Below are positions 3,476 through 23,275 of a DNA stretch of 24,000 nt, piece after piece. The notes under the pieces are model-generated. The model made no database searches. It saw only the letters and a list, made by a program, of their open reading frames with translations, and was not told the origin of the DNA. Source of the stretch: Candidatus Heimdallarchaeota archaeon (lineage in GTDB: Archaea; Asgardarchaeota; Heimdallarchaeia; Heimdallarchaeales; Kariarchaeaceae); NCBI GenBank assembly GCA_029882335.1, contig JAOUKW010000003.1:6383-30382 (forward strand), in the 5' to 3' direction. Within the stretch, counting starts at the first letter, position 1; the number at the start of each line of letters is the position of its first letter. The position numbers and the translations under genes are program-made.

Positions 3476-5371
3476 TTATTTATTTGAATTTTTTTTAACG
3501 ATAGGTAGCAAAACAATGATTGAAAGCAATGTAGCAAGGCTAGTAAATCCATATGTTTCAACTGCACTAGAACTTAATATTTGAGAGGGCGATGATGGTG
3601 TTTCTGGGTCATCTACTTCGACAGAAACAAGATCCCATTGTTGGAGATTTTGACTTAATAGTTGAAAATCTAATCCAACAATTGAGCTATTATATAACCA
3701 ATGATGTTGACGAGATGCAATTGGAATTACTGGTTTCCATTCAGCCAAAAAGGATTGAATTTGCTGCAATAAATTAATTCTAGTTGCAGTATCAATTGCA
3801 ACCTGATAATCAGCGACTAAACCCGTAATTTCTTGGTTTGCAAAGTTATACCAGTTATCACAAGTACCAGTGTCACAGAGACCATTGGTGTCAAATAAGT
3901 ATTGTGGATTATAGTCTAATGGCCATCCATATGCTATAAAGAATATATCATATCCACCATCATCCCATAATGGAACTAAAGATGCATCTTGCCATCCAAA
4001 TGTTCTAGGAATAATTTCATCCCATCCTTGGCTAACTATTTCAGTAACACCAATACCGATCTTTGGTAGGTCTTCCTCAAAAATATTATGCCAATAATTT
4101 CTCATGGCACAATCTATATATCGTAATAAAGTCACATTAAAAAAGAAAGTGTTGTATGTGTCAGAGGTTTGATTATAAATAAGTGTTGAATAATCGAAAC
4201 CAGCGGAATTCATTAATGATCTGGCTATTTCAATATTGAATGGATCAGGTGATATTGTGTTGTCCAATCCTGTTGTAGTGGGAGGTATTGGTGTTGATAA
4301 TGGTATTGCCAAATTATCAAATATTTCTGAAATGATATAACTTCGGTTCAAAACATGTGACATGGCATTTCTAACTGATTTAGCACCCATAATTCTATCC
4401 TCTGTAGTGGCTGTAGTTCCTAATGGAAGTCCTTCTCCAGTTCCATACATGGGGTGAATATTATTAAGTGCCATCTCAATTGTCTCTGACGTATTTGAGG
4501 TTTTAGAAGTAAATTTTGTAGTATCATATGAATTATCAAGTGGTATCAAATATTTATGGTCAATTAAATCAATATTGCCAGATGTAGTTTCAGTTAATAT
4601 TTGACCATTGAGAATTTGCTTAAAGATTATTTTATCAAAATAAACAGAATCAGAAGAAAAGTAGTTGTTATTTTTAATTAGAGTGACAATTTTATTTTGT
4701 AAATCGATTGTGTCTACTTTATATGGTCCACCGCCAGTTATATCTGCACCTGATGGATCATTCCAACTACAGTCATCAGCCATATATACATCATTTGCTT
4801 TACAAATATCCCATTTAGAGCTAAAATAAATTTGATTGAGAATTGGTATAGATAATGCTCGAATATTAAATGCATGTATTTGATTAAATTCAATTCTGAC
4901 TGTTAAATCATCAACTTTAACAACTGAGTTTATAGAGAAATCATCGATTAATAATTTTAAACTTGTTATATTAAAAATTGGGTCTAGTAGTATTTCATAG
5001 GTAAAAATAACATCATCTGCAGTAAAAGGAGTTCCATCTTCAAATAACATTCCTTGTTTTATAGTTACAGTGTAGTTCTTTCCATCCGGAGTTATACTAA
5101 GTGTATCCGCAAACCATTCTGTTAATTCTCCGTTATTGGATGAATCTGGTCTAAATAACGATGCACTTACAGCATTCATTATGCGAAAATCAGCCCGGGT
5201 GTTGTCTCTTATGTCTGTTAAATAGGAAAATTCATAAAAATACGATGGAGATGTATATACAAATTCCCTATCATCCTCTTGCAACGATATTGAAGTATCT
5301 GATATGACAAAATTAGATACAAAGATTAATATTATTACATATAAGCTAAAAGTAATTTTAATAGATTTCAT
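3476..5371 (-). CDS. Extracellular solute-binding protein, family 5 (peptide/nickel/opine type), with C-terminal membrane anchor
   Basis: 631-aa ATG ORF with an N-terminal signal peptide (MKSIKITFSLYVIILIFVSNFVIS). It has the family-5 SBP signature region (WFADTLSITPDGKNYTVTIKQGMLFEDGTPFTADDVIFTY). The C-terminus is a Ser/Pro linker, then YGFTS, a hydrophobic helix and KKNSNK. It is paralogous to 11974..13905 and to the pseudogene at 10613..11848. Confidence 0.85.
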   Translation of the reverse strand: MKSIKITFSLYVIILIFVSNFVISDTSISLQEDDREFVYTSPSYFYEFSYLTDIRDNTRADFRIMNAVSASLFRPDSSNNGELTEWFADTLSITPDGKNYTVTIKQGMLFEDGTPFTADDVIFTYEILLDPIFNITSLKLLIDDFSINSVVKVDDLTVRIEFNQIHAFNIRALSIPILNQIYFSSKWDICKANDVYMADDCSWNDPSGADITGGGPYKVDTIDLQNKIVTLIKNNNYFSSDSVYFDKIIFKQILNGQILTETTSGNIDLIDHKYLIPLDNSYDTTKFTSKTSNTSETIEMALNNIHPMYGTGEGLPLGTTATTEDRIMGAKSVRNAMSHVLNRSYIISEIFDNLAIPLSTPIPPTTTGLDNTISPDPFNIEIARSLMNSAGFDYSTLIYNQTSDTYNTFFFNVTLLRYIDCAMRNYWHNIFEEDLPKIGIGVTEIVSQGWDEIIPRTFGWQDASLVPLWDDGGYDIFFIAYGWPLDYNPQYLFDTNGLCDTGTCDNWYNFANQEITGLVADYQVAIDTATRINLLQQIQSFLAEWKPVIPIASRQHHWLYNSSIVGLDFQLLSQNLQQWDLVSVEVDDPETPSSPSQILSSSAVETYGFTSLATLLSIIVLLPIVKKNSNK

Positions 5372-5603
5372 AGTAAATCACGATTGTAAATATAGAAAGT
5401 GATAATCTATTTAAAGATACCTTATCAAAGGTGGTATTTCATAAAAAGTATATTGGTAGTTGATAATATACAATGGGTATTGTGTGGTTGGAATAAAATC
5501 AATAAACCATTTCGATATTAGAACTTTATTCTATCCCTAGAATGCATTTATATGAAACAAGGAATATCGTTAGTTTTTTATAAATAATTTCTAACATCAA
5601 TTT

Positions 5604-6008
5604 ATGACTAAGGTATCTGAACGAATTGAATTATTAATGAATAAAAAATTAGTAGCCAGTTTTGTTTCTATTACAGAAGATGGATTTCCTCACATTGTGC
5701 CTTTATGGTTGGTAACTGATGGGGAAAAATTGTATTTCAGCGCTTATGATCATTCGAAAAAAATAAGAAATCTGATTGCTAATCAAAAATCCGCTTTATC
5801 TGTAGTAGATCCCTCAGGTGGTCCATATTTTTCAGTTTATGGTACCTCAAAAATATTAGATAAAAATAATTTTGATAGGTATGAAGTGGTAATTACAAAA
5901 ATTGTGAAAAAATATTTACCAGTTGAAAAATTTGAAGATGGTATGAATGAAAGGATGAACCATCCTAATAGAATATTAGTAGAATTTACTCCAATTAAAT
6001 ATTACTAA
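5604..6008 (+). CDS. Pyridoxamine 5'-phosphate oxidase-like (split-barrel FMN/F420-binding) family protein
   Basis: 134-aa ATG ORF. The pattern is typical of the small PNPOx-like family: LVASFVSITEDGFPHIVPLWLVTDGEKLYFSAYDHSKKIRNLIANQKSALSVVD, then a C-terminal (R)ILVEFTP strand. Confidence 0.7.
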   Translation: MTKVSERIELLMNKKLVASFVSITEDGFPHIVPLWLVTDGEKLYFSAYDHSKKIRNLIANQKSALSVVDPSGGPYFSVYGTSKILDKNNFDRYEVVITKIVKKYLPVEKFEDGMNERMNHPNRILVEFTPIKYY

Positions 6009-6114
6009 AATTGAATTAAAGATAGTTAATGAAATTTACTACCCGTTTTAGTAGTTGCATTTGATAGACCAGAAATTAAAGATTACCCTTACATTTCTTT
6101 ACAATAAAATCCCA

Positions 6115-7206
6115 TTAGTTGTATTTCTTCATTCTCTTCAGTTTCTTGTACTTCAGTTGATTGATAATTAGTAATGCTAATGGTATTATAGTAGAAATAG
6201 CTGAGAATTCAAAACCAACATTTGACGAGGTTGTTGTTGTATTTGATGTTTGTTGAGGAGTTATCGGGGTTTCTGATGGTATATCTAAAATAAATGCAGA
6301 GACAGTAATATTGAATATACCATAATGTAAATACGAATATACCTCAATATAATAAAATCCAGAAACATTGTATAAACGAATCCAATCCATTTCTCTTTCT
6401 GTATAGTACGATTCAGCAATTAATTCTCTTTCTTCGTTATATATATTAAAATCAAAATCTAAAGTTTCATTCGTCATTATGGTTACTTGATAATTGTCAA
6501 ACTCTGTTAAATTAATTTGGAAGAACTTGGGATATTTTATTCTAGTCAATTCTTCGTTGACGGTCTGGTTTAATTGTATATCTATTGCAGTTGAAAAATC
6601 AGACCCTGGAGGAGCTGAAATAACAAGTAGCTCATAATTTGGATCATCAATAATCCAAGGTATAATTTTGATATAGACAAAATCAGTTAGATTATCTAAT
6701 ATATAATATTCAAATTCAATTTCAGCATATGCATATCCGATCTCCTCTTGATTTGAATTATAGATAACCATGTCAAAATCACTGTTAGTATTGTAATGTA
6801 AAGTGAATAAATATATAGTCGATGTTTGATTTAAAGTGAGATTATAATATCGACTTCCATCATCTGATGGGCCGGGTAGTACGTCATTTACTGTTTGATT
6901 TAATTCTATTGATATTGCGGTATTAATAGAATCTCCATGAGAGCTATTCGGTGTGATTTTTAGATTATCCATTTTACTCGGCTCAATTTTAAATTGTTGA
7001 AATCGATATTGAAAATCACTATTAGTTGAAATTGCTGTATTTGATACTGGTAGAAATAGGAAAATACAGATGGAAATTAAGACTGTGGTTTTATTGTCCA
7101 CATTTAAGGTGAATATTACATATTTAAAAGGATATTTAATGGATTGTGTAGCAAAATTTCTCAATATTTTTATTTTAAATACAATTCTGTATATGGTATA
7201 ATTCAT
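6115..7206 (-). CDS. Secreted, C-terminally anchored protein with two tandem pre-peptidase C-terminal (PPC)-like beta-sandwich domains
   Basis: 363-aa ORF with two internal repeats fitting the PPC pattern. Repeat 1: TAISIELNQTVNDVL..YYNLTL..DFDMVIYNSNQEEIGYAY..VYIKIIPW..YELLV. Repeat 2: TAIDIQLNQTVNEEL..FFQINL..DFDFNIYNEERELIAESY..YYIEVYSY..FNITV. The tail is a Thr/Ser linker, VGFEFS, a TM helix and KYKKLKRMKKYN. Start is uncertain. ATG 7206 gives a 36-aa pre-signal extension. GTG at 7101 would give a clean signal peptide (MDNKTTVLISICIFLFLPVS) with TTTTAAATA ~28 nt upstream. Confidence 0.7.
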   Translation of the reverse strand: MNYTIYRIVFKIKILRNFATQSIKYPFKYVIFTLNVDNKTTVLISICIFLFLPVSNTAISTNSDFQYRFQQFKIEPSKMDNLKITPNSSHGDSINTAISIELNQTVNDVLPGPSDDGSRYYNLTLNQTSTIYLFTLHYNTNSDFDMVIYNSNQEEIGYAYAEIEFEYYILDNLTDFVYIKIIPWIIDDPNYELLVISAPPGSDFSTAIDIQLNQTVNEELTRIKYPKFFQINLTEFDNYQVTIMTNETLDFDFNIYNEERELIAESYYTEREMDWIRLYNVSGFYYIEVYSYLHYGIFNITVSAFILDIPSETPITPQQTSNTTTTSSNVGFEFSAISTIIPLALLIINQLKYKKLKRMKKYN

Positions 7207-7262
7207 ATATTTTTAACTGTTTAAACTTATATTAATATATTAAATATAGAGTTCTACCCCTA

Positions 7263-8264
7263 ATGCTTTTGTTTTTCCTTTTAGTTAGTCCTAATACTAC
7301 TTTTGGAAAGACTAGGAGAGATAGTATAATTCTTTTTATTGATGAATTATATCGATCTGATGGTGGATATGCTGATAAGACTGTGTCTAGTTCTTCAACT
7401 GATGCTTCTACATTTGTTTTGATGACTGCTGCATTACTTGGTTATGAGATAAATAATACACTTGATCTTCAACATTATTTTCAGAGTTCACAGAATTATG
7501 ATGGTGGTTTTGGAAATAATCCAAATAATATTAGTAATTGGCAAAGTACTATTCATTCTATTTTTGGTTTAAATATATTGGGTATTAATGCTTCACAATT
7601 GAGTAATTGGAGAATTAATAATTTTATAAATGACACTGCTATCAATACACTATTTAATACATCTTTAAATCCAATAACTCCTGTTGATTTAAATAAAGAG
7701 ATTATAGATCTTTGGCATGATTACATTTATACCTATTCTGTTATAGGTTATATTCCAATAATTCCAATTGAATTCTTATTGTCAAATTTACTACAAATGC
7801 AATATCCAAATGGTACATATCCAAATTTACCAATTGCAATTTCTACAATAAACCTTCTTAATCTACTTGGAGAACCGGTGAGAGATGTGGAATTAGCTTC
7901 AGAGTATATCAGATCATTTGCAGATTCAAGTGGTGCGTTTTCTTATTCGAGAGAAGGTGGAGCGTCAATTAAGGCAACAATGGAGTCCGTTAGGGCATTA
8001 CAAGTTATGGGTAGATTAGATGATTTGGAGTATAAGCGAGATATAGTTCAGTTTTTGCTGAATCAACAAGAAGCTAGTCAAGGAATTCATGAAGTAGGTA
8101 AGGAAGTTGATATCTATGCAACATATCAAGCAGTCTATACAATTTTCGTGTTAGGTTATATTACTGAACTAAATGCACCAGATGTATTGGAATCAGATCG
8201 TTTTGTAACTTTTCCATTTATATCTATGATACTAATCCCACTGGTATGGAGGAAAAGAAGATGA
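7263..8264 (+). CDS. Surface-anchored alpha/alpha-toroid protein with prenyltransferase/terpene-cyclase-type repeats
   Basis: 333-aa ATG ORF; an in-frame TAA at 7233 excludes a longer form. Five repeats match the prenyltransferase beta-subunit type: DGGYADK..TAALLGY; NYDGGFGNNPN..IFGLNILG; QYPNGTYPN..LLNLLG; DSSGAFSYS..VRALQVMG; QQEASQGIHE..YTIFVLG. It has a short N-terminal signal and a C-terminal FVTFPFISMILIPLVWRKRR anchor. Confidence 0.7.
   Translation: MLLFFLLVSPNTTFGKTRRDSIILFIDELYRSDGGYADKTVSSSSTDASTFVLMTAALLGYEINNTLDLQHYFQSSQNYDGGFGNNPNNISNWQSTIHSIFGLNILGINASQLSNWRINNFINDTAINTLFNTSLNPITPVDLNKEIIDLWHDYIYTYSVIGYIPIIPIEFLLSNLLQMQYPNGTYPNLPIAISTINLLNLLGEPVRDVELASEYIRSFADSSGAFSYSREGGASIKATMESVRALQVMGRLDDLEYKRDIVQFLLNQQEASQGIHEVGKEVDIYATYQAVYTIFVLGYITELNAPDVLESDRFVTFPFISMILIPLVWRKRR
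8248..8252 (+). promoter_or_regulatory. Shine-Dalgarno motif (GGAGG) for the ABC ATPase gene
   Basis: GGAGG lies 8 nt upstream of ATG 8261. That ATG overlaps the upstream stop (ATGA, 8261..8264), which is classic translational coupling. Confidence 0.6.
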
Positions 8265-9205
8265 ATTCAGTTGTACAGATGAAATTTGTTTCTAAGTTTA
8301 TACAAAACCGAGCTATTATTCAACGATTAAATTTAGAGGTTCCCGGGGGTACATTATTTGGGTTACTTGGACCCAACGGTGCTGGTAAAACCACTGCAAT
8401 TAATCTGATGACTGGGAATCTTAGACCCACCAGCGGAATGATTTCGATATTTGGAATGGATCCTTGGAAAAATAGAGTTGATTTATACAAAAAAGTTGGT
8501 TTTCTCCCACAAAATTCTTCTTTTTATCCTGATAAACAAGTAATACAATCATTGACATATATGGCTCGATTAAAGGGAATTGCACGTCGAGACGCAAAAA
8601 TAGAAGCAAGGGAAACTCTTGCGATGGTTGGATTAACTCGTTTTGAACAGCAAAAAATCGGAAAATTATCCGGTGGGGAAAGACAGAGATTAGGTTTTGC
8701 AAATGCAATTATTGGTGATCCTGAATTACTTATTCTTGATGAACCTACTGCATCGCTTGATCCTGAAGGTAGGATTTACATAATGAATCTCATATCTAAG
8801 TTGAGTAGAGATGAGAAAAAAACAGTGGTGATTTCCTCTCATATCCTTCCAGAAATCCAACGGATGACAAACTATATTGCCATTCTAAATCAAGGTGAAA
8901 TGCTTATTAGTGGATCAATGAAACAATTAACCAGAAATATTTATGATGATATGTATGAAATAGAAACATCTCATCCTGTTGAATTGCTTCAGCATATAAA
9001 AGATCTTAATTTTAATGCGTATATGGACGAGACTACTATAATGGTAAATACAAATGGGAATTTACTTGCTTTATGGAGTGAAGTACCAAAAATTTGTACT
9101 TCAAATAACTATCAGCTTCGTTCTTTTAAACCAGCGAAAGATGCATTGGAAAATTTATTTATTGATCTTGTATCTAGAAAAAGAACACAGGAGGTTAATA
9201 AATGA
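8261..9205 (+). CDS. ABC transporter ATP-binding protein (ABC-2/DrrA-CcmA-like exporter type)
   Basis: Walker A GPNGAGKTT, Q-loop, signature LSGGERQRL, Walker B LLILDEPT, D-loop SLD and H-loop SSHIL are all present. A ~90-aa C-terminal accessory domain follows. I place the start at ATG 8261 (SD plus ATGA overlap) rather than at the ORF-track ATG 8246. Confidence 0.9.
   Translation: MNSVVQMKFVSKFIQNRAIIQRLNLEVPGGTLFGLLGPNGAGKTTAINLMTGNLRPTSGMISIFGMDPWKNRVDLYKKVGFLPQNSSFYPDKQVIQSLTYMARLKGIARRDAKIEARETLAMVGLTRFEQQKIGKLSGGERQRLGFANAIIGDPELLILDEPTASLDPEGRIYIMNLISKLSRDEKKTVVISSHILPEIQRMTNYIAILNQGEMLISGSMKQLTRNIYDDMYEIETSHPVELLQHIKDLNFNAYMDETTIMVNTNGNLLALWSEVPKICTSNNYQLRSFKPAKDALENLFIDLVSRKRTQEVNK
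9190..9195 (+). promoter_or_regulatory. Shine-Dalgarno motif (GGAGGT) for the ABC-2 permease gene
   Basis: GGAGGT lies 6 nt upstream of ATG 9202. That ATG overlaps the ATPase stop (ATGA, 9202..9205). Confidence 0.6.
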
Positions 9206-10062
9206 GTTTATCTGAAAAAATTACTGGATTTTACCAAAATTATTTAGAAGGTAGAATTAGATTTACTGCATTTATAATTGCCAAAGAATTAGTGATTTCC
9301 AGTATTAAGGAAAAAAAATTTCTTTTTGCATTATTATATTTTACCATCATTCCTATGTTGATTTTGTTATTGACTTCTAATCCAGATGTGATTCAAACAG
9401 GATCTGGTATTGCATTATATTATGCTCAACACAATACTGTGGACTTCATTAAAAATTACTTTTTCTCTCTTATTATGGGTCAGATTTTAATAGTTATCCT
9501 AACAGCAGACCAAATTTCAGGTGAATTTGAACAAACAACTTTTGTTTTACTACGAACTAAACCAGTATACGATTCTGAAATAGTTTATGGTAAATTTTTT
9601 GGTATTATGAGCTTTTTGATGATCTTAGATGTATTCACAATTTGTGGTGTATTTTTATCAAATATGTCAACATATGAAGCGGAGACTGAGGCATACATTG
9701 GTACTATTGATGAATTAGTCGTTGCATTGTTTATAATCGCTTTACTTCAAAGTTTAATTGTTTCCATGACTCTTCTCATATCTTCTTTCTTTTCGAGAAG
9801 TCTATATGCAATATTATCAAGTATGATTTCTCTATTTATTATAAATATATTCACCATTGATTATGATCCTTCATCTGAGAAATTGAATTTATTTTCATTT
9901 CCATGGTTAATAGATGCTATTTTTCCCCAATTTTTCTATCATATGGATGTATTACCATTTTCGATTCCTTCATTATTAGAATTTATCATTGGAATTCTTT
10001 TCGTTACTAATTTATTGCTAGGTGCAGCCATTTTGCGAATAAGACTTCGAGAAGTTTACTAA
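9202..10062 (+). CDS. ABC-2 family transporter permease
   Basis: 286-aa polytopic membrane protein with about six hydrophobic segments and a loop between TM1 and TM2. It is translationally coupled to the preceding ABC ATPase. There is no sequence signature beyond topology and context. Confidence 0.75.
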   Translation: MSLSEKITGFYQNYLEGRIRFTAFIIAKELVISSIKEKKFLFALLYFTIIPMLILLLTSNPDVIQTGSGIALYYAQHNTVDFIKNYFFSLIMGQILIVILTADQISGEFEQTTFVLLRTKPVYDSEIVYGKFFGIMSFLMILDVFTICGVFLSNMSTYEAETEAYIGTIDELVVALFIIALLQSLIVSMTLLISSFFSRSLYAILSSMISLFIINIFTIDYDPSSEKLNLFSFPWLIDAIFPQFFYHMDVLPFSIPSLLEFIIGILFVTNLLLGAAILRIRLREVY

Positions 10063-10211
10063 GTTTGTCTTATTGCATTTATCTATGATAATGTTCCAAG
10101 GTATTTCTTCCTTATATATTTAATAAACAATATTTCCACCTTATTGGTTCAATAAATTGAGGAATGTCTGTAAATTTGTTAATTTTGTAATTTGTATGAT
10201 TATAATTTGCA

Positions 10212-10346
10212 CTACGTGATGCAAAGCATGTGAAGTACTTCCATGTAGAAATCATTTTCTAACTCGATTTCTTCATCATAATCGATATTTGATTGATCTA
10301 ATTTGTATAGATCGCCAGTTTCAATAGTTTCAATTGTTGTTGTCAT
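10212..10346 (-). CDS. Possible small acidic protein (44 aa), unverified
   Basis: The ATG at 10346 opens MTTTIETIETGDLYKLDQSNIDYDEEIELENDFYMEVLHMLCIT inside an otherwise empty 550-bp gap. A TTTATTAAATA element lies ~35-45 nt upstream. I recognise no homology, and the ORF could be a chance one. Confidence 0.2.
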   Translation of the reverse strand: MTTTIETIETGDLYKLDQSNIDYDEEIELENDFYMEVLHMLCIT

Positions 10347-10612: not shown

Positions 10613-11848
10613 ATGAGATATTTTTTGTTATTCTCCGTTTTTATGGTGATAACAATATTAATCACTGCAAATGAGAACTTATATAATTCAAATCAATCAG
10701 AACAAATTTTATATCAGACCACAACTCTTACATATGCGTTACCTTATGATTTTGCTGAATTTGGTTATTTTACTGCATACTCTATGCAACACAACAATGG
10801 CTGTCTGCAATAGGTGTGTCTTTATTTAGATATGATGCAAGTAATGACAGATTAATGACTCCTTGGTTTGCAGAAAGCTATGAAATTAGTACAGATGGTA
10901 AGAATTATACTGTTACTATCAAACCTAGAATGAAATTCCAAGATGGGAGTCCATTTACTGTAGATGATGTTGTATTTTCCTACAAAGTTTACTATCATGA
11001 CTTTTTTGATGATGCAGACGGCATCATGAACAACGAATCAGTTCATAAAATTGATGCAAGATCATTGATGATGTCTGTAGGCTTTGATTATAATGATTTA
11101 ATCTACAATTTAGATACCGATACCTATAATTCATACTTCTTCAATGTAACATTGTTAAGTCCTAGTTCTAGTCCTATCAGACATATATGGTCCGTCTATT
11201 TAGATCAATCATTACCAAAGATAGGTATTGGTGTAACAGAACATGTTAATACCGGATGGGGTGAAATTGTTCCCCGAACTTTTGGATGGTCTTCAAATAC
11301 ATTAGTGCCATTATGGGATGACGGTGGTTATGATATTTTCTTTATTGGATATAGATGGTCATTTGACTATGATCCACAGTACTTATATGATACCTATGGG
11401 CTTTGTGACACCGGTTCATGTGATAACTGGTATAACTTTGTAAACACTATAATTACTGATCTCGTAGATTTATATGTACGAGAGTTAGATAATAATGCAA
11501 GAATTACATTAGCTCACCAAATTCAAGATTTCTTGAAAGTATGGAGACCTGTTATTCCTAGCATTTACCCACAACCCACGGGGCTATAATAAAAATTTAA
11601 CAGGTATTGATGGAATTTTACTCTCCAGCTCAAACCAACAATGGGATCATTTAGGATTTATTCCCTATACTCCTTCAATAAGTGACTCTCCTACTTCTAG
11701 TAATGATATACTAAATAATATTACACCTACTCCAAAAAATCATAATTCTGATAGTTCAAATGAAGGATTTTTGGATGGATTTTCATTTCTTATTGTAATG
11801 TCAACTTTGTTCATATGGACTGTGAGATACTACAAAAGAAGGAAATAA
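10613..11848 (+). pseudogene. Decayed family-5 solute-binding protein gene (paralogue of 11974..13905)
   Basis: Alignment by eye to the intact neighbour shows three lesions. (1) A 1-nt deletion near 10782 (tcatatgcaac becomes tctatgcaac) causes a frameshift and a TAG at 10811. (2) An in-frame loss of 681 nt (227 codons) has its junction at 11053/11054, equals intact 12436..13116, and is flanked by 'atg' microhomology. (3) Two 1-nt losses near 11573..11580 lead to TAA TAA at 11587. The reading frame then resumes in another frame (NLTGIDGILLSSSNQQWD...) through a linker, DGFSF, a TM helix and YYKRRK, with the stop at 11846..11848. ORF-track entries 10586..10813 and 10816..11589 are its fragments. 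Confidence 0.85.
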
Positions 11849-11973
11849 ATTATCTGGAAATCATAATTTAACAATTTTTTATAATTGTATATGAATGAAA
11901 TAAATTGAAAGGGTTGTCCAAAACTAATCTTTTATTAACAATTATTTATATAATTGTTATCTATGTTCTCTGT

Positions 11974-13905
11974 ATGAGGTACAATCTCAATCTCCGTAAA
12001 TTATTATTTGGTATAATGATTATGACTTTATTAATCATGTCCAATAATAATGTCATAAGTATAGATCAATCCAGTATTGGATTAACTCAAAATCCTACAA
12101 CAACGCTTACACATGCGTTACCGTATGATTTTACTGAATTTGGTTATTTTACAGCATACTCATATGCAACACAACAATGGCTGTCTGCAGTACGTGCGTC
12201 TTTATTTAGATATGATGCAAGTAATGACAGATTAATGACTCCTTGGTTTGCAGAAGGCTATGAAATTAGTTCTGATGGTAAGAATTATACAGTTACTATC
12301 AAAGCAGGAATGAAATTCCAAGATGGAAGTCCATTTACTGCAGATGATGTTGTCTTTGCGTATGGCGTTTATTACCATGACATTTTTGGTGGTGCAGACG
12401 GCATCATGAACAACGAATCAGTTCATAAAATTGATGATTTAACCGTTAAGTTTGATATGATGCAAGCATATGCATTTGGTGTTAGTTACTTAAGTAAACC
12501 GATACTTAATGAAGCATATTTTGGACCTAAATGGGCTGCATGTGTTGCAAATGGTGCAACCGTAGAGGCTGATTGTTTATGGGATGATCCAAGTGGTGTT
12601 GATGCACATGGAGGAGGACCATATATGGTTCAATCAATTGATATCACAACTGATGTTGTGACCCTAGTTAAAAATCCCCACTACTTTGATGCTTCTAATG
12701 TTTATTTTGATGAACTTGTTTTTAAAAAGAATTCTAACCCAATTGACGCAATAAATGCTCTTGCAGCTGGTGATATTGACATCATAGATTCTCAATTTGT
12801 ACCTCCATTAGAGGCATTTAATGAATTTGATAATGTTGCATCTTTGAGAGTAACAGATCCTGCTACCCAAGAAATTTCTTTAAATCATCTACATCCGATG
12901 TATGGTACCGGTGAAGATTTACCACTTGGTTCAACCATAACATCTGCAGTAGAAGGAGCAAAAGCAGTTAGAGAGGCTATGTCCAGCGTTCTTAACAGAG
13001 AATCTCTTATAGAAGAAATTTTTGAAGGAAGGGCATTACCCGCAGCTACAGTTGTGCCGGCTACAGCTACTGGTTGGAATCCAAACTTAGCATTTGATCC
13101 ATATGATGTTGCACATGCAAGATCACTGATGGAATCTGTGGGATTCAATTACGGCAATTTAAACTATAATTCCATCAATGATGAATATACATCTTTCTTC
13201 TTCAATGTAACATTGTTGAGTGCTAATACTAGTCCTAGTAGAAATTTATGGCCTGTCTTTTTTGAACAATCCTTACCAAAGATAGGTATTGGTGTAACCG
13301 ATCATGTTAGTACCGGATGGGCAGAAATAAATCTCAGAACATTTGGGTGGTCTTCAAATACATTAGTACCATTATATGATGATGGTGGTTATGATGTATT
13401 TTTTGTAGGATATGGATTTCCATTAGACTATGATCCACAATACATATTTGATACTAATGGTCTATGTGACTCTAGTGGACCTGGAGCATGTAAAAACTGG
13501 TATAACTTTGTAAACCAAGAAATTACTGATCTAGTAGATTTATATGTAAGAGAATTAGATGGTAATACAAGAATTACCTTAATTGGTCAAATTCAAGATT
13601 TCTTGAAAGCATGGAGACCTGTTATTCCTAGCATTTACCCACAATCCCACTGGGGACATAATGTTAATTTAACCGGTATAGATGGAATTTTACTCTCTAC
13701 ATCAAACCAACAATGGGATCAAGTGAAGGTTCAAGACTTAATTCCTCCTCCTTCTAACAATTCCTCAACACCAGTAAATCAGACATCTGATAATTCGGTT
13801 GATAATGGAGATTTAGATGGATTTTCATCAATTCTGGTATTATCAAGCATGTTTGTAATGACCGTGTTATACCGAAAAAAATGGACAAATAAGTTGAAGA
13901 TTTAA
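11974..13905 (+). CDS. Extracellular solute-binding protein, family 5, with C-terminal membrane anchor
   Basis: The ORF-track start at 11905 is TTG. ATG 11974 gives a signal peptide (MRYNLNLRKLLFGIMIMTLLIMS) that parallels the pseudogene's MRYFLLFSVF. The family-5 signature is WFAEGYEISSDGKNYTVTIKAGMKFQDGSPFTADDVVFAY. The tail is a Pro/Ser/Asn linker, LDGFSS, a TM helix and RKKWTNKLKI. Confidence 0.85.
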   Translation: MRYNLNLRKLLFGIMIMTLLIMSNNNVISIDQSSIGLTQNPTTTLTHALPYDFTEFGYFTAYSYATQQWLSAVRASLFRYDASNDRLMTPWFAEGYEISSDGKNYTVTIKAGMKFQDGSPFTADDVVFAYGVYYHDIFGGADGIMNNESVHKIDDLTVKFDMMQAYAFGVSYLSKPILNEAYFGPKWAACVANGATVEADCLWDDPSGVDAHGGGPYMVQSIDITTDVVTLVKNPHYFDASNVYFDELVFKKNSNPIDAINALAAGDIDIIDSQFVPPLEAFNEFDNVASLRVTDPATQEISLNHLHPMYGTGEDLPLGSTITSAVEGAKAVREAMSSVLNRESLIEEIFEGRALPAATVVPATATGWNPNLAFDPYDVAHARSLMESVGFNYGNLNYNSINDEYTSFFFNVTLLSANTSPSRNLWPVFFEQSLPKIGIGVTDHVSTGWAEINLRTFGWSSNTLVPLYDDGGYDVFFVGYGFPLDYDPQYIFDTNGLCDSSGPGACKNWYNFVNQEITDLVDLYVRELDGNTRITLIGQIQDFLKAWRPVIPSIYPQSHWGHNVNLTGIDGILLSTSNQQWDQVKVQDLIPPPSNNSSTPVNQTSDNSVDNGDLDGFSSILVLSSMFVMTVLYRKKWTNKLKI

Positions 13906-14512: not shown

Positions 14513-15760
14513 TTAATCTGTTGTTTTTGTTGGTTTTGATTTTTTAGTTGTAGATCCGTTGGTAATGTCTGCTAATGATATATCTGCTTCTTTTAATGCA
14601 TTAATTCCAGAAATTAGATCCGAATAGAAACTATTTGAGGATAAAAATAACTTAGAGTTCTTTTCAATTCCTTTTGAGATTTGTTCTGCAACCTTTACCT
14701 GTGTATCTGCATTGATTTCTGCAATCTTTACACCAATACCTTCTTTGTTGAAAGATTTAATTGCTTCTGCAAGAGCTTTTGTACCCTCTGCTTCTGCAAG
14801 TAATTTTAGCTTAATAGCTTCTGCTTCCGCTTGAGCTCTAATTCGAATTGCTTCAGCCTCTGATCTAGCTTTAATTAGTTGTGCTTCAGATTCTCCTTTG
14901 GCAATTTCCATTTGTCTTTCAGATTCAGCTAGCGTATCAATTTTTAATTTTTCTGATTCAATTTCTGCAGTACGTCTGATTTCAGCATTCTTTATATCCA
15001 TTTTTCTTAGTGTTAACTCTTTATTTTCAACTGCAATGAATTTTTCCTGTTCTAATCTTGCTGCTTCTGATTTTTGAAGTGCTTGTTGTTTTTGTACTTC
15101 TGCTTCAGAAATCTTTTGTGCTTCAATAATTTCAGCTTGTGTACTTTGTTCAGCTTCAGCAATTCTTGCTAATTTGGTTAATTCTGCCGATTTCACCCTT
15201 TCCATATCCGAAATTACTGTGCTACCCGGAACATCAACAATATCTCTGATGTCAAATATTAATACTTTAACACCTAATCTAGATAATGATTCTGCTGTAG
15301 ATTTATAGATTGCTGTTTCAATCTCATCTCTTTCTCTCATGATAGTTGTTAATTCTAATCTCATTGCCTCAGATCTTGCCGCTGCTTGTATGGTATCGTC
15401 AACTATTGGTTTGATTTCATTTGCAGTAGCTTTTCCTAGGGTTTGGACGGCAGTTTTTGCATCAGAAACTTGGACTTTACAAGATATTTCAACGGCAAAT
15501 GGTAAGTTAGAAGAATCTAGTAGTTTGATTCTTTGAACAGCAATTTCTATTACGCTTGTTGAAATTATATTTTTCTTATGTATAAGTGGAAAATATCTAT
15601 ATGATTGCCCACCATTAAACATTTTTATTTTACCTCTACCGGATATAACGTGTACTTCATCTGGTTTTACAACGTTATATGTTGTATATAGTATATATCC
15701 AATTGCAACAATAATTCCTGTAAACAGAAATCCAATTGTTGTTACATCTAATTGTGCCAT
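14513..15760 (-). CDS. Flotillin-like SPFH/band-7 domain membrane scaffold protein
   Basis: 415-aa ATG ORF. It has an N-terminal TM hairpin (TTIGFLFTGIIVAIGYILYTTY) and an SPFH core (VHVISGRGKIKMF...FAVEISCKVQV...). A long Glu/Ala-rich coiled coil follows, with flotillin-type EA repeats (RSEAEAIRIRAQAEAEAIKLKLLAEAEGTKALAEA). Confidence 0.9.
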   Translation of the reverse strand: MAQLDVTTIGFLFTGIIVAIGYILYTTYNVVKPDEVHVISGRGKIKMFNGGQSYRYFPLIHKKNIISTSVIEIAVQRIKLLDSSNLPFAVEISCKVQVSDAKTAVQTLGKATANEIKPIVDDTIQAAARSEAMRLELTTIMRERDEIETAIYKSTAESLSRLGVKVLIFDIRDIVDVPGSTVISDMERVKSAELTKLARIAEAEQSTQAEIIEAQKISEAEVQKQQALQKSEAARLEQEKFIAVENKELTLRKMDIKNAEIRRTAEIESEKLKIDTLAESERQMEIAKGESEAQLIKARSEAEAIRIRAQAEAEAIKLKLLAEAEGTKALAEAIKSFNKEGIGVKIAEINADTQVKVAEQISKGIEKNSKLFLSSNSFYSDLISGINALKEADISLADITNGSTTKKSKPTKTTD

Positions 15761-15765
15761 TTATT

Positions 15766-15770
15766 TCACC
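15766..15770 (-). promoter_or_regulatory. Shine-Dalgarno motif (GGTGA) coupling the NfeD-RING and flotillin genes
   Basis: The minus strand reads TAA-GGTGA-AATAA-ATG. The upstream stop (15771..15773) is followed immediately by GGTGA, and the flotillin ATG lies 5 nt later. GGTGA matches the GGAGGTGATC-type anti-16S motif. Confidence 0.6.
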
Positions 15771-16472
15771 TTATGATATATTTACAATATTATTTGCGTC
15801 AAATTGTAGTATTGCTTTACAATTTGGACAAACATTCCTAATTTCTAGCCAAGCTTTCAAATGTTCGATATGAGCATTGTAATTACATTGTGGACAAGAA
15901 CTTGAATTTTCAAGGATGCCAATATCTGCAAAACAGATCATACAAAACTTATCTTTTGATTTTTTTCTAATAAATTTAATAATTTTTGAGTAAGATTTCT
16001 TCTCTGAAGGTTTGTTGATTTTAAAATTTGAATTGAATTCATAGACTTGTGCATATACTCCATTGAAGTGCGAAATTACCACCTTTGTCCACTTTGGAAT
16101 TGTGTTTATTTCGTTATCAATGCCTTCTGCAACAAAATATTCTCTTCCATTATCTGTTTCAAGTATTATTTGTCCCTTCTTACCTGGATTTATTGGAATA
16201 TCTACAATCGCAATTTTTCCTATGGATTGATCATAAATATCCTTGGGATCGTTGATTTGTAGAAAAATTATACCTAGCAATCCAGATACAATTAATCCAA
16301 TAATAAATGCGTTGATACTTTCTGTGTTATTATATCCTAGAATACCCCAAACAAATAGAAAGATAGGCCAATCTATCGGTAAATTAGAAAGTGGTAAGGT
16401 GAAGTTGTATTTTTCTTTTGCTATTGCTACTATAATCGCAACAACAATTAAAAACAAATAAAAGATGCTCAT
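15771..16472 (-). CDS. NfeD-family membrane protein (3 TM + OB-fold) fused to a C-terminal RING/PHD-type zinc finger
   Basis: 233-aa ATG ORF with three N-terminal hydrophobic helices. An NfeD C-terminal-domain-like beta segment follows (GKIAIVDIPINPGKKGQIILETDNGREYFVAEG...WTKVVISHFNGVYAQVYE), then a Lys-rich linker. The finger is C177-x2-C-x12-C-x2-C-x4-H-x2-H-x10-C-x2-C218 (nt 15819..15944) and includes HLKAWLEIRNVCPNCK. The gene sits directly upstream of an SPFH gene, which is the conserved NfeD position. Confidence 0.8.
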   Translation of the reverse strand: MSIFYLFLIVVAIIVAIAKEKYNFTLPLSNLPIDWPIFLFVWGILGYNNTESINAFIIGLIVSGLLGIIFLQINDPKDIYDQSIGKIAIVDIPINPGKKGQIILETDNGREYFVAEGIDNEINTIPKWTKVVISHFNGVYAQVYEFNSNFKINKPSEKKSYSKIIKFIRKKSKDKFCMICFADIGILENSSSCPQCNYNAHIEHLKAWLEIRNVCPNCKAILQFDANNIVNIS

Positions 16473-16680
16473 CAGAATCAGAAACCTATAACTTATTGAA
16501 AGGTTGCTAAAGATTAGGTAATATTATAGAGTCGAATTAAGTATATAAAATAATTGTAATTTAAGTGTATAATTCAAATATTTGATATATCCTATAAATA
16601 TATAATATCCAACTTTAACAAATGGTTAATACAGTAATATTTTCTCGATTGATACGTTTTTTAAATGTATTTTCTAATAT

Positions 16681-17436
16681 CTAAATTGTTTTATTCTCTT
16701 TATAATTTGTTGAATTAAGAGGCATAAATGCAATAAAAATTGCAGCAGGATTATCCATTGATTGATCTTCATCAGGTTGATTCTGTGTAAAATATGGATT
16801 CAGTACATCTAAGTAAAATTTGGATAGTTTGGATTTAACCTCTTTATGATTCCGCAGATTGAAAATGTTTTGTAAGAAAAATGTGTTTTCAATATATGAT
16901 TGTCCGATGTAAGCTGATTTGTTTTCTTCGATGTAGTCTGAAATAATCTCTGTTATCATTTTAATAAATCCTAAAGATGAATAATTTGCAAATGATAGAT
17001 AAGATGATATCAAGTCATATTTGTTTTTGATAATTAGATATTCAACAAATTTGGTATCAAAGCTGGGATCGCTGATTCGGTTATTCACACTATAGTAAGC
17101 ATTTCTTGGTTCTTCGTGATTTCTTTCCTTCTTGATAAGACCTGCATCTGAAAGTGCTTTTAATGAACGAAAGAGTGATTTTTCACCTTTTAAATTTAAT
17201 TTATCCTTTAAATTGCTTGTTTTCATTTTACCATTAATATTAAGGTGGATCATAATTTTATTACAAGAATCCCATCTGAAAACTTGAATTAATTTATTCA
17301 TATATTCAATTCGTTGTTCAAAGTCTTCTATTTCTTCTTTAGTAAAATTAAGTAAAACCATTATATGTCTAATACTATTGAATATTTCTAGATATAAAAA
17401 TTTAAGTATCATATTATGGTACTTTGTATATATCAT
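16681..17436 (-). CDS. Winged helix-turn-helix (ArsR/MarR-like) DNA-binding protein with an uncharacterised C-terminal domain
   Basis: The wHTH-like segment is WDSCNKIMIHLNINGKMKTSNLKDKLNLKGEKSLFRSLKALSDAGLIKKERNHEEPRNAYYSVN, followed by ~130 aa I cannot identify. Start is uncertain. ATG 17436 lies only 25 bp from the divergent gene. The internal ATG 17361 (MVLLNFTKEE...) has TTTTTATATC ending ~29 nt upstream and may be the real start. Confidence 0.6.
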   Translation of the reverse strand: MIYTKYHNMILKFLYLEIFNSIRHIMVLLNFTKEEIEDFEQRIEYMNKLIQVFRWDSCNKIMIHLNINGKMKTSNLKDKLNLKGEKSLFRSLKALSDAGLIKKERNHEEPRNAYYSVNNRISDPSFDTKFVEYLIIKNKYDLISSYLSFANYSSLGFIKMITEIISDYIEENKSAYIGQSYIENTFFLQNIFNLRNHKEVKSKLSKFYLDVLNPYFTQNQPDEDQSMDNPAAIFIAFMPLNSTNYKENKTI

Positions 17437-17461
17437 TTTATAATATCATGAGTTGAAAATT

Positions 17462-19150: not shown

Positions 19151-19330
19151 TACATTAGAAAAATAAATAGATATTATTCTACAACTAATATCATGAAAAA
19201 GTCTTATACTTTGTTAGATCTAAGAAGGAGATAAACTAAATATAAATTGGTTATGTTATTACATTATTTAATATTAATTAAAATTATATTTTTTTATATG
19301 CAAAATTATGTTTGAGGAAAGTCTATATTG

Positions 19331-21238
19331 TTATTTTGACATTTTGGTTTTCTTTCTTAGAAACCAAGTGATTACTGGTATCAAAAGAAGAGTAGTTGCA
19401 TTGAACTCAACAATTCTCGGTTCTGATATACCTGATGTGGAGGAGTTAGTTATATCCCTTGATGTCAAACTTCCAAACTCAGAAACATAATTATATGGAT
19501 TATTTATTACATTATGTGCATGTTGAATTATAGTATAACTTTCTAAATATAATTTTTGAGCATGAAGTGACATGGCATTCAAGTATAATTCATCTAAATA
19601 TGGTAAAAGATCCGGAAATGTTGATCCCCAATGAGTATATGCCTCTGTATATGCATTATATAGTGTAAAAATTATTTTATCTAAATTTCTTCTCCAGAAG
19701 GCTTGCGAAATTAAAACAGAAAAATTCGCTGTACCTGGATAATAACCCATTACATCGGAAATAAAATCGGATACAAATGAATTTCCAAATGTATGTGGCA
19801 GTCCGATGGAATGTCCAATTTCATGTATTAGTACTTTGCTTAATCCTGCTTTATGGGTGGTTCCATCTGGCATGAATGCCCGATCTAATTCCCATAACAT
19901 AGTTACAATTCCATTTCCTCCAAGCCCGGTATAAAGGCCTCCTGTCCAAGGTATCCAACTGTCTCCTGCGTAACTCGCATTATCAAGAAGGAGTATCAAT
20001 CCTTTAATTGGTAGAGTTGCATCTGTTCTTTCAAAATAATTACCGCGTAAAATACTATTACTGAATATCTCACCCCAGAGTTGATCTCCATTATAAAATC
20101 TCCAATTTTCAAAAGGTGGATCGATCCCTTGGTATGCACTATAATCTATTTCTGCATTTTCTATCAAATCTTTAAGAAACGTATCATTATTTATATCATA
20201 ATAATTAACTACAAATTCAATATTTGTTGAATTTGCTATGTAACCTAATTTATCAATTGATAATTGTTCATTAATTATCCATCGTAATTCTTCTTCACTT
20301 TTTTGTGTGCTATTATATACAACAATGGTTTGTGAATTGACATTTTCTCTTAGATTAATCCCTTCTCCAAATAAACCCATGCCGTATATATTTTCCAGCC
20401 AATCAGTAATCCATTTAGATGTTGTATCAGTAACAATTGGTCTCGCATTTGATGGTGTTTCATTGTTAATGAGCTCTGTTAAGGTATTGTCATAAGATGG
20501 GTGATAAATTGTATTATCATTCCAAATACTTCTCCAATTTAACACCCATTGAAATGATGTTGGATCTAAAATTGCAACATCCGTTTGTTCACTGAATGCA
20601 GCATAAGGGAATTTTACATCATAGTTCAATGGGTAGTCCCATTCTAATCTCCAGTAAAATCTTGAAGACATGGAATCTGGATCTATTTCTGTTGCATTTA
20701 ACCAGTGTTTATTGGTACCAATATCCAACCTAGATAAATTGAATACAAACATATGATATAAATTATTATCATTTAAATTCGTTGATGGTTTGTTTGCAGA
20801 TAAATATTGTTCTAATAATCTAGCATCTATTGCTTTTCCATTTTGCTGTTCAAAAATATCCTTTCTCACAAAGTTTACTTTTTGTTCATTAATTGCTGTT
20901 TCATTAAGTTTAGAAGTCCAGTCATCGGTTGTAATGGTATCAATATATGCATTTAATTGGTCCGTATAAGACTGATCTGGTACTTGTAAATCCAAGATTA
21001 CATCATAATTCAAATCTCCATAGTAATTATAAAAGTATGTAAATTGTAATTGTGATCTAATTGAGTTTAAATCTAAAAGACTAGTATCAAAATTTATGAA
21101 ATTAATTGAAATATTCATCTCTATATCAACTTCTGGTAAAACTGGTGTTACAAGGACTGAATTCGTATTAATTGGTGCGAATGCAAAAATAATAAGAATA
21201 AGGAGAGTTTTACTTATATTTATATTCATCTGAATCAT
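19331..21238 (-). CDS. Secreted, C-terminally anchored metzincin-type zinc metalloprotease (HExxHxxGxxH + Met-turn; M43/M10-like motif)
   Basis: The ORF-track start at 21241 is TTG and the adjacent ATG is at 21238. The signal peptide is KTLLILIIFAFAPINTNS. The zinc motif LIHEIGHSIGLPHTFGN (nt 19792..19824) is followed by a SDVMGYY Met-turn candidate. About 450 aa precede the motif. The C-terminus is a TM helix followed by RKKTKMSK. The protein contains no cysteine. Confidence 0.85.
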   Translation of the reverse strand: MIQMNINISKTLLILIIFAFAPINTNSVLVTPVLPEVDIEMNISINFINFDTSLLDLNSIRSQLQFTYFYNYYGDLNYDVILDLQVPDQSYTDQLNAYIDTITTDDWTSKLNETAINEQKVNFVRKDIFEQQNGKAIDARLLEQYLSANKPSTNLNDNNLYHMFVFNLSRLDIGTNKHWLNATEIDPDSMSSRFYWRLEWDYPLNYDVKFPYAAFSEQTDVAILDPTSFQWVLNWRSIWNDNTIYHPSYDNTLTELINNETPSNARPIVTDTTSKWITDWLENIYGMGLFGEGINLRENVNSQTIVVYNSTQKSEEELRWIINEQLSIDKLGYIANSTNIEFVVNYYDINNDTFLKDLIENAEIDYSAYQGIDPPFENWRFYNGDQLWGEIFSNSILRGNYFERTDATLPIKGLILLLDNASYAGDSWIPWTGGLYTGLGGNGIVTMLWELDRAFMPDGTTHKAGLSKVLIHEIGHSIGLPHTFGNSFVSDFISDVMGYYPGTANFSVLISQAFWRRNLDKIIFTLYNAYTEAYTHWGSTFPDLLPYLDELYLNAMSLHAQKLYLESYTIIQHAHNVINNPYNYVSEFGSLTSRDITNSSTSGISEPRIVEFNATTLLLIPVITWFLRKKTKMSK

Positions 21239-21382
21239 CAATAACCTTTAATTATAAATATCAATTCATTTAACTTCAATAAATTTATTTTAATATCGTT
21301 TATTTTTTTTTTATTTTGCTGAGTAATTTAAAATCTAAATTGTAAAATCAGGATAAAAATTTATAGAATACTCATGAATTTA

Positions 21383-23275
21383 TTAAAATTTTCTTTTTTT
21401 AATTAATTTAATTGTTATTATAGGAATTAATACTAATAAACTGAAACCGAAATTGTGAGTTAGTTCCTCTTCTTTTGAATTTGGAATTATAAAATCATTA
21501 GAGAATTCGGATGAGTACTCAGAAACAGAAGTATATTGCTCCGGAAAGTTTAATACATGTAGTAGATGTTCTATCATTGGTATTAATTCTAAATATTTTT
21601 TCTGTGCGTGTATTTCCATTGCAAGTTTGTAATTTTCAAAAACGTAACTAACTATATTGGGGTAATAATTGGTATAATCCAAATATGTTTCTTGATATCT
21701 TGTTAATAGTTCTTGTATCTTATTATCCACATTTCTTCTCCAAAAACTTTGAGAAATTAAAGTTGAGAAATTTGCTGTACCTGGATAATAGCCCATTACA
21801 TCGGAAATAAAATCTGATACAAATGAATTAGTAAATGTATGTGGCAACCCGATGGAATGTCCTATTTCATGGATAAGTACTTTACTTAATCCTGCTTTAT
21901 GGGTTACGCCATTTGGCATGAATGCACGATCCAATTCCCATAACATGGTAACAATGCCACCACCACCTAAACCTGTAAATAACCCTCCCGTCCATGGAGT
22001 TAGTGAGGGAGAATCAGATGCATAACTTGCATTATCCAAGATCAGTATTATTCCCTTAACTGGAATGTCTGCTGTACTGTCAATGAAATAATTATTATTC
22101 AATTCAGAATTTACAACGACTGCATTAAATAAATCAATCCCATCATAATAGGTCCAATTTTCAAATGGTGGTGTTCCATAAACCGATTGATAATCTATTT
22201 CTGCATTTCTCAGGATGTTTTGAAGAACATGATCTGATTTTACATCATAATAATTGACTATGATATCAACATCAGTTGAGTTTGCTATAAATCCCAATTC
22301 ATCAGAAACTAATTGTTCATTAATAATCCATTCAATTTCACTTCTGCTCTTTTGACTGCTGTTATATCCAACAATAAACTGAGCATTTGTAGATCCTCCT
22401 AGTTTTGGTTCGTCACCCATCAATGACATTCCATAAATGCGATTTAACCAATCTCCAACCCATTTAGAAGTAGTATCTGTTACCGTATTTCTGGCTTGTT
22501 CTATTGTTTGAGAAGTTATTAGTTCTGTCAGAGTTTTATCGTAGGATTGGTGATATACCGTATCGGTATTCCAGTATCTTCTCCAATTCAATACCCATTG
22601 AAATGAAGTTGGGTCTATGATTGCTATATCTGATTGTTCACTAAATGCAGCATAAGGGAATTTAACATCATAATTCATTGGGTAATCCCATTCTAATCTC
22701 CAGTAAAATCTCGAGGACATGGAATCTGGATCAATCTCAGTTACATTTAACCAATGTTTATTTGCTCCAACATCCAATCTAGAAAGATTAAATACAAAGA
22801 TGTGATATAAATTATTGTCATTGAGAGTTGTTGTAGGTTTATTATTTGAAAGATATTGTTCTAATAGTCTAGCATCAACTGCTTTTCCATATTGTTGTTC
22901 GAAAATATCCTTTCTAGTAAACTCTGCTCTTTGTTCTAATATTGCTGTTTCATTTAGTCTAGAAGTCCAGTCCTCAGAGGTAATGGTATCAATATAATTA
23001 TTTAATGATTCAGTATAATCCTGATCTGGTGTGTTTAATTCAAAAATAATATTATATTCTGTTGATCCATAATTCCTGTATAATTGTGTGTTTTCAAAAT
23101 TTGATTGGAGCGCAGTCAAATCTAACAGATTTAGGTCAAAATTAATGAAATTAATTGCTATATTCATTTCTGCCAATAGTGGTAATGTTTCAGTTGGTTC
23201 CTGTGAATTGATTTTTGGTGTTGATGTGGTGATCAAAAAAATGATTACAAGCAATCGCAAATTTTTTTTATCCAT
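21383..23275 (-). CDS. Secreted, C-terminally anchored metzincin-type zinc metalloprotease, tandem paralogue of 19331..21238
   Basis: 630-aa ATG ORF with a signal peptide (LRLLVIIFLITTSTPKINS). It has the identical LIHEIGHSIGLPHTF motif (nt 21839..21871) and SDVMGYY. It is colinear with the downstream paralogue over the full length. The tail is NFGFS, a TM helix and KKRKF. The protein contains no cysteine. Confidence 0.85.
   Translation of the reverse strand: MDKKNLRLLVIIFLITTSTPKINSQEPTETLPLLAEMNIAINFINFDLNLLDLTALQSNFENTQLYRNYGSTEYNIIFELNTPDQDYTESLNNYIDTITSEDWTSRLNETAILEQRAEFTRKDIFEQQYGKAVDARLLEQYLSNNKPTTTLNDNNLYHIFVFNLSRLDVGANKHWLNVTEIDPDSMSSRFYWRLEWDYPMNYDVKFPYAAFSEQSDIAIIDPTSFQWVLNWRRYWNTDTVYHQSYDKTLTELITSQTIEQARNTVTDTTSKWVGDWLNRIYGMSLMGDEPKLGGSTNAQFIVGYNSSQKSRSEIEWIINEQLVSDELGFIANSTDVDIIVNYYDVKSDHVLQNILRNAEIDYQSVYGTPPFENWTYYDGIDLFNAVVVNSELNNNYFIDSTADIPVKGIILILDNASYASDSPSLTPWTGGLFTGLGGGGIVTMLWELDRAFMPNGVTHKAGLSKVLIHEIGHSIGLPHTFTNSFVSDFISDVMGYYPGTANFSTLISQSFWRRNVDNKIQELLTRYQETYLDYTNYYPNIVSYVFENYKLAMEIHAQKKYLELIPMIEHLLHVLNFPEQYTSVSEYSSEFSNDFIIPNSKEEELTHNFGFSLLVLIPIITIKLIKKRKF

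Follow-up and report, generated by a model that had tools for sequence, protein, structure and literature searches.

C-terminal anchor tails on the exported proteins of a Heimdallarchaeial genome segment: candidate diverged instances of the Heimdall-CTERM sorting signal

The tails and the proteins that carry them

The 24,000-nucleotide stretch of contig JAOUKW010000003.1 analysed here, called the window in what follows, encodes six intact exported proteins and one pseudogene that end in the same way: the linker is followed by a (G)F motif, then by a membrane helix and finally by a cluster of Lys/Arg residues. A preliminary description of the window had quoted seven such tails and attributed them to four unrelated families. 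Both statements hold: the C-termini of the six intact open reading frames (ORFs) are identical to those quoted, the pseudogene tail was recovered, and family searches distinguish solute-binding proteins (SBPs) of the SBP_bac_5 family, a repeat protein, an alpha/alpha toroid protein and the metzincins. An eighth tail (...NQSFLSYSINWIVVSFIGFSIIIRSKNRKQFIKT) belongs to a 1048-aa NosD/beta-helix protein encoded directly upstream of the window (locus L037). About 44 kb of the source genome, window and flanks together, could be read, and over this length the architecture is present on 8/8 exported non-polytopic proteins; the cytoplasmic and polytopic proteins of the window have no such tail, nor do the remaining proteins in the ~44 kb.

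The SBP_bac_5 family has three copies in the window, pseudogene included. SBP1 (gene 3476-5371, minus strand; PF00496, 162 bits) ends in SSSAVETYGFTSLATLLSIIVLLPIVKKNSNK, encoded at 3479-3574, and SBP2 (gene 11905-13905, plus strand), of the same family, ends in NGDLDGFSSILVLSSMFVMTVLYRKKWTNKLKI at 13804-13902. In the third copy (10613-11848, plus strand), a stop interrupts the gene behind a signal-peptide fragment; the SBP body that follows (10816-11589) is truncated by an internal deletion of ~260 aa, and a frameshift separates it from the tail frame. The tail, NEGFLDGFSFLIVMSTLFIWTVRYYKRRK at 11759-11845, was obtained by translating the frame from 11501, which reads ...SSNEGFLDGFSFLIVMSTLFIWTVRYYKRRK up to the stop codon at 11846-11848; this paralogue is decaying, yet the reading frame of its tail is intact. 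Neither intact SBP gene of the window adjoins permease or ATPase genes. Two SBP orthologues (P0037 and P0043, at loci L044 and L045) are found in full operons comprising the SBP, a protein of ~510-520 aa of unassigned function, OppB, OppC, OppD and OppF.

The repeat protein is a 363-aa ORF (6115-7206, minus strand, probable true start 7101), and its translation ends in TTTTSSNVGFEFSAISTIIPLALLIINQLKYKKLKRMKKYN (6118-6240). An alternative 328-aa call, from another assembly, opens with a signal peptide of canonical form, MDNKTTVLISICIFLFLPVSNTAIS. The protein consists of two repeats and has no match in Pfam, NCBIfam or PDB; these databases give no support to the 'PPC' label that it first received, and the only relatives are distant repeat-domain proteins. 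The toroid protein (gene 7263-8264, plus strand; PF00432, 52 bits) is a prenyltransferase-like alpha/alpha toroid with the tail ESDRFVTFPFISMILIPLVWRKRR at 8190-8261. A weak match of this protein to archaeosortase C (E = 0.085) was discarded as noise. Its gene runs into the first nucleotides of an ABC ATPase gene (8246-9205), which is followed by an ABC-2 permease gene (9202-10062), all on the plus strand, and the three (7263-10062) probably form one operon. Metzincin A (gene 19331-21241) and metzincin B (gene 21383-23275), both on the minus strand, carry the HExxHxxGxxH motif and the Met-turn, which are invariant in the family alignment; they end in PRIVEFNATTLLLIPVITWFLRKKTKMSK (19334-19420) and LTHNFGFSLLVLIPIITIKLIKKRKF (21386-21463), respectively.

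A hydrophobic, signal-like segment opens every tailed protein, in line with the signal peptides reported for all of them, except that the segment of the toroid protein, MLLFFLLVSPNTTFG, is short and weak. The same protein departs from the Ser/Thr/Pro/Asn-rich linker that had been described for most tails: it has none, while the other linkers contain 40 to 64% of these residues, with zero to three N-x-S/T sequons. The motif itself is GF in five of the seven window tails (YGF, VGF, DGF twice and FGF) and EF or (R/P)F in the remaining two, and the eighth tail has SF at this position. Between the F and the basic cluster lie 11 to 19 residues, and three to seven Lys/Arg residues follow the helix in all tails. 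Five helices of the eight, those of the tails at 3479-3574, 6118-6240, 8190-8261, 19334-19420 and 21386-21463, contain a Pro (LLPIV, IIPLA, LIPLV, LIPVI and LIPII), at distances from the F and the basic cluster that vary; similar strings, [LI][LI]P[LIV], are seen again in tails of orthologues. The layout as read from the sequence (signal peptide, single C-terminal helix, basic cluster) is that of a type-I transmembrane (TM) anchor, and this architecture makes it very likely that the tails anchor the exported proteins in the membrane.

The GF motif and the Heimdall-CTERM model

GF borders the helix on its outer side in five of the eight tails; in the protein sample of the organism G makes up 5.5%, F 4.9% and the GF dipeptide 0.32%. 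At the outer helix boundary, we counted GF in 4/10 C-terminal tails versus 2/61 other hydrophobic segments (Fisher p = 0.0028), on an automatic tail set (n = 10) that took in two false tails and left out that of metzincin B. For F alone, the counts are 8/10 tails versus 25/61 other segments (p = 0.025).

When the tails were scanned one by one against NCBIfam, a single sorting-signal model matched any of those in the window, namely Heimdall-CTERM (NF045529; 26 positions, curated cut-off 24 bits). SBP2 scores 17.7 to 18.7 bits, SBP1 15.8 to 16.8 bits and the pseudogene 12.8 bits, and the G-F of these three SBP-family tails aligns to model positions 4-5. With respect to the (P)-G-F signature of the model (positions 3-5), G-F is present in 5/8 tails and the Pro in none. 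No window tail matches the PGF-CTERM model (TIGR04126) at E <= 10, and none contains PGF. Likewise, per-tail scans of the eight tails of the organism gave no match to the PEF-CTERM, PEP-CTERM, VPXXXP-CTERM, LPXTG and Loki-CTERM (NF033507) models. In a broader set of 30 tails, composed of five window tails and metzincin tails, there are weak generic matches to LPXTG_anchor (two members) and VPxxxP (one member), and one tail weakly matches Loki-CTERM (E = 0.0052).

We probed the signature of the Heimdall-CTERM model by scanning mutated SBP tails. Replacing the F by A abolishes the match in both SBP1 and SBP2; replacing the G by A abolishes it in SBP1 and lowers the score of SBP2 from 18.7 to 15.5 bits (-3.2). 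Conversely, in the SBP1 tail, the change of Y to P, which creates PGF, brings +4 bits, that of KK to RRK +4.8 bits and that of the helix Pro to Leu +1.5 bits. The first two combined bring the SBP1 tail to 25.5 bits, over the cut-off. These scores define the signature of the model as P-G-F, helix and Arg-rich end, that is, as PGF-like, and place the SBP tails two or three substitutions short of membership. The repeat-protein tail matches no CTERM model even with V to P and K to R changes, nor does the metzincin B tail with K to R. As positive controls, a Hodarchaeota tail (...TSGTSGFEVFIAFLGAIGLVLVYQRHKRK, starting SGFEVF, locus L025) scores 29.1 bits on Heimdall-CTERM, and the PGF tail of a repeat-protein relative (P0094, ...VPGFTGVLALFALTVFTIWRLKRR) reaches 24.7 bits with the Heimdall-CTERM model and 20.0 bits with PGF_CTERM; since this tail matches both models, the two overlap. 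Tails of orthologues from Dehalococcoidia and Bathyarchaeia, used as negative controls, do not match Heimdall-CTERM.

The loss of Pro and the use of Lys for Arg would both go in the direction expected under AT pressure (the window has ~30% G+C), and it is probably through such compositional drift that the curated model misses all the tails. Annotation of AT-rich Heimdall genomes will then under-call the signal, so that a model tuned to the lineage is needed.

All eight tails (8/8) are located at the C-terminal end of an exported protein and combine a TM helix with a basic cluster, and the source organism falls within Heimdallarchaeia. The closest homologues of the metzincins and SBPs carry the names Ca. 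Kariarchaeaceae or Ca. Heimdallarchaeota, and the same contig encodes a ubiquitin/E1/E2 cluster; from these two elements we conclude that the source is a Heimdallarchaeial Asgard archaeon. The sequence of the window sits in a 90-kb contig of the ENA assembly ERZ27296342; the best match in the genome collection has 46% identity, and a species-level representative was not among the matches. The cluster lies 2-10 kb past the end of the window (locus L001, 597-7818) and contains genes for a ubiquitin-like protein, a ThiF-type E1, a UQ_con E2, Yip1 and eRF1, a eukaryote-like set that is typical of Asgard archaea.

Tails in related proteins and neighbouring genes

Among 19 complete tails of SBP orthologues, G-F or G-x-F is kept in about nine (read by eye), often as G[GS]F[LIV]P[LIV][DS]. 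In the Heimdall orthologues, which are ~40% identical, G[GS]F recurs while the linkers are otherwise unalignable. The relatives of the repeat protein (46 representatives) are all distant, and their tails are of several types: PGF (P0071, P0094 and P0101), [ST]PF (P0060 and P0068), or a helix with a zinc ribbon on its cytoplasmic side. The PGF tails occupy the equivalent position on relatives from other archaea. The zinc-ribbon type, a CxxC...CxxC motif after the helix of many type-I repeat-domain relatives (P0063, P0064, P0066, P0069, P0077, P0078, P0088 and P0093), is a different C-terminal solution on the same repeat-domain ectodomain.

Metzincin orthologues, at 30 to 60% identity, keep the helix and the basic cluster. 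In five of them (P0025, P0028, P0030, P0031 and P0033), dockerin repeats take the place of the TM tail, with a precomputed PF00404 assignment in one. In this respect the tail behaves like an interchangeable module for attachment to the surface, and the dockerin ends suggest that cohesin-dockerin attachment to the surface serves as an alternative in related lineages. A second metzincin, 44% identical and TM-tailed, was found on a contig of ~30% G+C from the same metagenome (k141_1624535, locus L041), where it adjoins an FtsX-type ABC system and a transglutaminase-core protein. In a Bathyarchaeia locus (L010), a ZIP zinc transporter gene (8149-8889) is located ~1 kb from the metzincin gene; a 94%-identical copy of the transporter is present in L026, likewise a Bathyarchaeia locus.

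Two other features of the window concern membrane proteins. The first ORF, at 11-835 on the plus strand, is the C-terminal piece of a leucine-rich-repeat protein of 1326 aa, with ~11 predicted TM helices, whose whole gene spans 3266-7246 of locus L036. At 14513-16472, on the minus strand, an SPFH/flotillin-like gene and its neighbour form an NfeD-like arrangement; the neighbour encodes a membrane protein whose C-terminal domain is RING/zinc-ribbon-like.

Membrane anchors or sortase substrates

The question arises as to whether the tails are only anchors or are also processed. We favour, with moderate confidence, the reading that they are C-terminal membrane anchors of which those bearing GF are probably diverged substrates of a heimdallarchaeosortase. 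Sortase-type processing is favoured by the enrichment of GF at the helix boundary, by its coincidence with the signature positions of a signal curated, with its enzyme, for the same archaeal class, by its retention in SBP orthologues, and by the PGF tails at the equivalent place in relatives of the repeat protein.

The following course of events is proposed. The protein would first be exported (Sec), and the short hydrophobic helix with its Lys/Arg stop-transfer cluster would retain it in the membrane, the catalytic or binding domain being held outside on a Ser/Thr/Asn/Pro-rich stalk that is probably glycosylated. The (G)F that borders the helix on its outer side may be a diverged, AT-drifted form of the P-G-F of Heimdall-CTERM, with the Pro lost and Lys replacing Arg. 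The GF tails, above all the three of the SBP family, would most likely be cut near the GF by a heimdallarchaeosortase, and the cut proteins would then be joined anew to a membrane lipid, as in the case of Haloferax ArtA. The EF, PF and SF tails may remain simple TM anchors. The presence of the enzyme in the source genome, the cleavage and the lipid attachment are what we infer.

Heimdall-CTERM and its heimdallarchaeosortase (NF045528, an equivalog model of 199 positions with a cut-off of 130 bits, whose accession adjoins that of the signal) are the known system closest to this proposal. They belong to the same archaeal class, and the signal likewise closes signal-peptide proteins at their extreme C-terminus; the G-F of the matching tails falls on its signature positions, at the outer edge of a TM helix after which comes a basic cluster. 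In contrast to the model, the window tails have no Pro before GF, use Lys for Arg and contain a Pro inside five helices. Loki-CTERM is another Asgard C-terminal tripartite signal, with weak cross-matches to some Heimdall and Hodarchaeota tails. The PGF-CTERM/ArtA pair (TIGR04126/TIGR04125) of Haloferax volcanii and other Euryarchaeota also has a tripartite tail after a Thr/Ser-rich linker, and its signal is carried by surface proteins that include ABC-transporter binding proteins (TIGR04281 is a family of PGF-CTERM-anchored SBPs); the window tails differ from it in lacking both a TIGR04126 match and the Pro. ArtA cuts its substrates, which become lipid-anchored, and the literature describes enzymes of its type for only part of the Euryarchaeota (PMC6098224). 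A strict requirement for the PGF motif in Haloferax is stated in the title of Abdul Halim 2016 (cited in PMC6098224).

The alternative that fares best, and that we hold to be quite possible, is that all the tails are plain unprocessed type-I TM anchors on which no sortase-type enzyme acts. The F and the frequent preceding G would then reflect a preference of the membrane interface for aromatic or helix-breaking residues, or be the relic of an ancestral signal. A number of findings argue for such anchors and weigh against processing. None of the eight tails attains the 24-bit cut-off of Heimdall-CTERM (0/8), and five, those of the repeat protein, the toroid protein, metzincins A and B and the NosD protein, have no match to the model at all (5/8). 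Nor is it matched by SBP orthologue tails of the form G[GS]F[LIV]P[LIV]D. The preliminary description had proposed a hidden Markov model built from the tails; run as leave-one-family-out profiles (eight tails, in a 34-protein sample of the organism), it scores the held-out tails at 0.8 to 4.7 bits, about the same as unrelated segments, so that held-out families are not recognised and no profile is transferable between families. What the families have in common is an architecture and a two-residue motif, and no strongly conserved domain. The enrichment of F alone is weak. In metzincin orthologues the boundary residues vary (EF, GF, IW, DF, PF and LF, with PGF once), and members of the family from Bathyarchaeia and Dehalococcoidia have plain TM tails. 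The motif of the present tails is also loose compared with the strict PGF need of Haloferax ArtA, as that title words it.

Archaea devoid of archaeosortases, such as Sulfolobus, have Opp-type binding proteins with a Ser/Thr linker and a C-terminal TM anchor, which points in the same direction. In Sulfolobus and Thermococcales, SBPs of the Opp/Dpp class run from a signal peptide through a body of SBP family 5 and a Ser/Thr-rich linker to a single helix at the C-terminus with basic residues, and no sortase is known to take part. We know of no conserved GF-type motif described for these TM-anchored binding proteins; the present tails differ from them in being enriched in GF.

The outcome of searches for the enzyme is in keeping with plain anchors. 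We hand-wrote six consensus-like exosortase probes from the Cys and Arg motifs of the family; they score 73 to 102 bits on TIGR04178, and it is their match lists that brought up NF045528. A profile of these probes, run against 1550 ORFs (window and loci L001-L043), gave a best hit of only E = 0.69. When 23 multi-TM ORFs of 35 related loci were scanned against Pfam, no exosortase or archaeosortase family was among the 25 families listed of the 26 matched; there was none in the Pfam lists of loci L001 and L036-L045, nor did NCBIfam assign one to any of ten multi-TM ORFs, otherwise unassigned, of Heimdall and Hodarchaeota loci. In all, no gene of the exosortase/archaeosortase family, the cognate heimdallarchaeosortase included, was found in ~0.6 Mb of reachable sequence (window, flanks and related loci), of which ~44 kb are from the source genome, too small a sample to establish absence. 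Archaeosortase genes are not necessarily linked to those of their substrates.

Three observations speak against plain anchors. GF is about tenfold more frequent here than at other helix boundaries, although an AT-rich genome disfavours Gly codons; SBP orthologues retain G[GS]F despite diverged linkers; and the residues G and F coincide exactly with the signature positions of a signal that is curated for the same class together with its cognate enzyme. The earlier proposal of a GF-CTERM-like signal with a dedicated archaeosortase is partly supported. Such a pair is already curated for the Heimdall lineage (NF045529/NF045528), to which the source organism belongs, with the G-F of the SBP tails on positions 4-5 of its signal model. 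The sub-threshold scores, the 5/8 tails without a match, the non-transferable profiles and the weak conservation of the motif among metzincin orthologues tell against it.

A wider version of processing, which we consider unlikely, is that a relaxed signal, made of xF, a short Pro-containing helix and a Lys cluster, is borne by essentially the whole secretome of this AT-rich lineage (8/8 exported proteins over the ~44 kb) and read by a co-evolved heimdallarchaeosortase of looser specificity. If this were true, sortase cleavage and lipid re-anchoring would be the default mode of surface display in the closest archaeal relatives of eukaryotes, a functional counterpart of glycosylphosphatidylinositol (GPI) anchoring. 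GPI-type signals proper are C-terminal hydrophobic stretches with a small-residue omega site and no subsequent basic cluster, and all the present tails end in Lys/Arg.

Processing by an enzyme outside the exosortase/archaeosortase group (a rhomboid, a CPBP-type intramembrane protease or a GPI-transamidase-like activity), with the recurrent helix Pro as part of the recognition element, would account for a residue that is found in 5/8 tails, recurs in orthologues as [LI][LI]P[LIV] and is not favoured, hence not explained, by Heimdall-CTERM, but is very improbable, as this Pro has no fixed spacing to the F or the basic cluster, the neighbourhood contains no rhomboid, CPBP-type protease or GPI-transamidase-like gene, a terminal Lys/Arg cluster is atypical of GPI signals, and nothing positive speaks for any candidate.

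To come back to the diverged heimdallarchaeosortase substrates that we favour, the kind of signal is already known, in the form of the curated Heimdall-CTERM/heimdallarchaeosortase pair, and the tails described here are new, sub-threshold instances of it in an AT-rich lineage. In the literature searched, no paper deals with Heimdall-CTERM, Loki-CTERM or heimdallarchaeosortase, none connects an archaeosortase or exosortase to Asgard genomes, and no publication treats the surface attachment of proteins in Asgard archaea, the Heimdall pair existing as database models only. In this Heimdallarchaeial genome, a single tail architecture extends across a cluster of hydrolases and binding proteins. Proof of their cleavage and lipid anchoring would carry archaeosortase biology beyond Euryarchaeota, into the sister lineage of eukaryotes.

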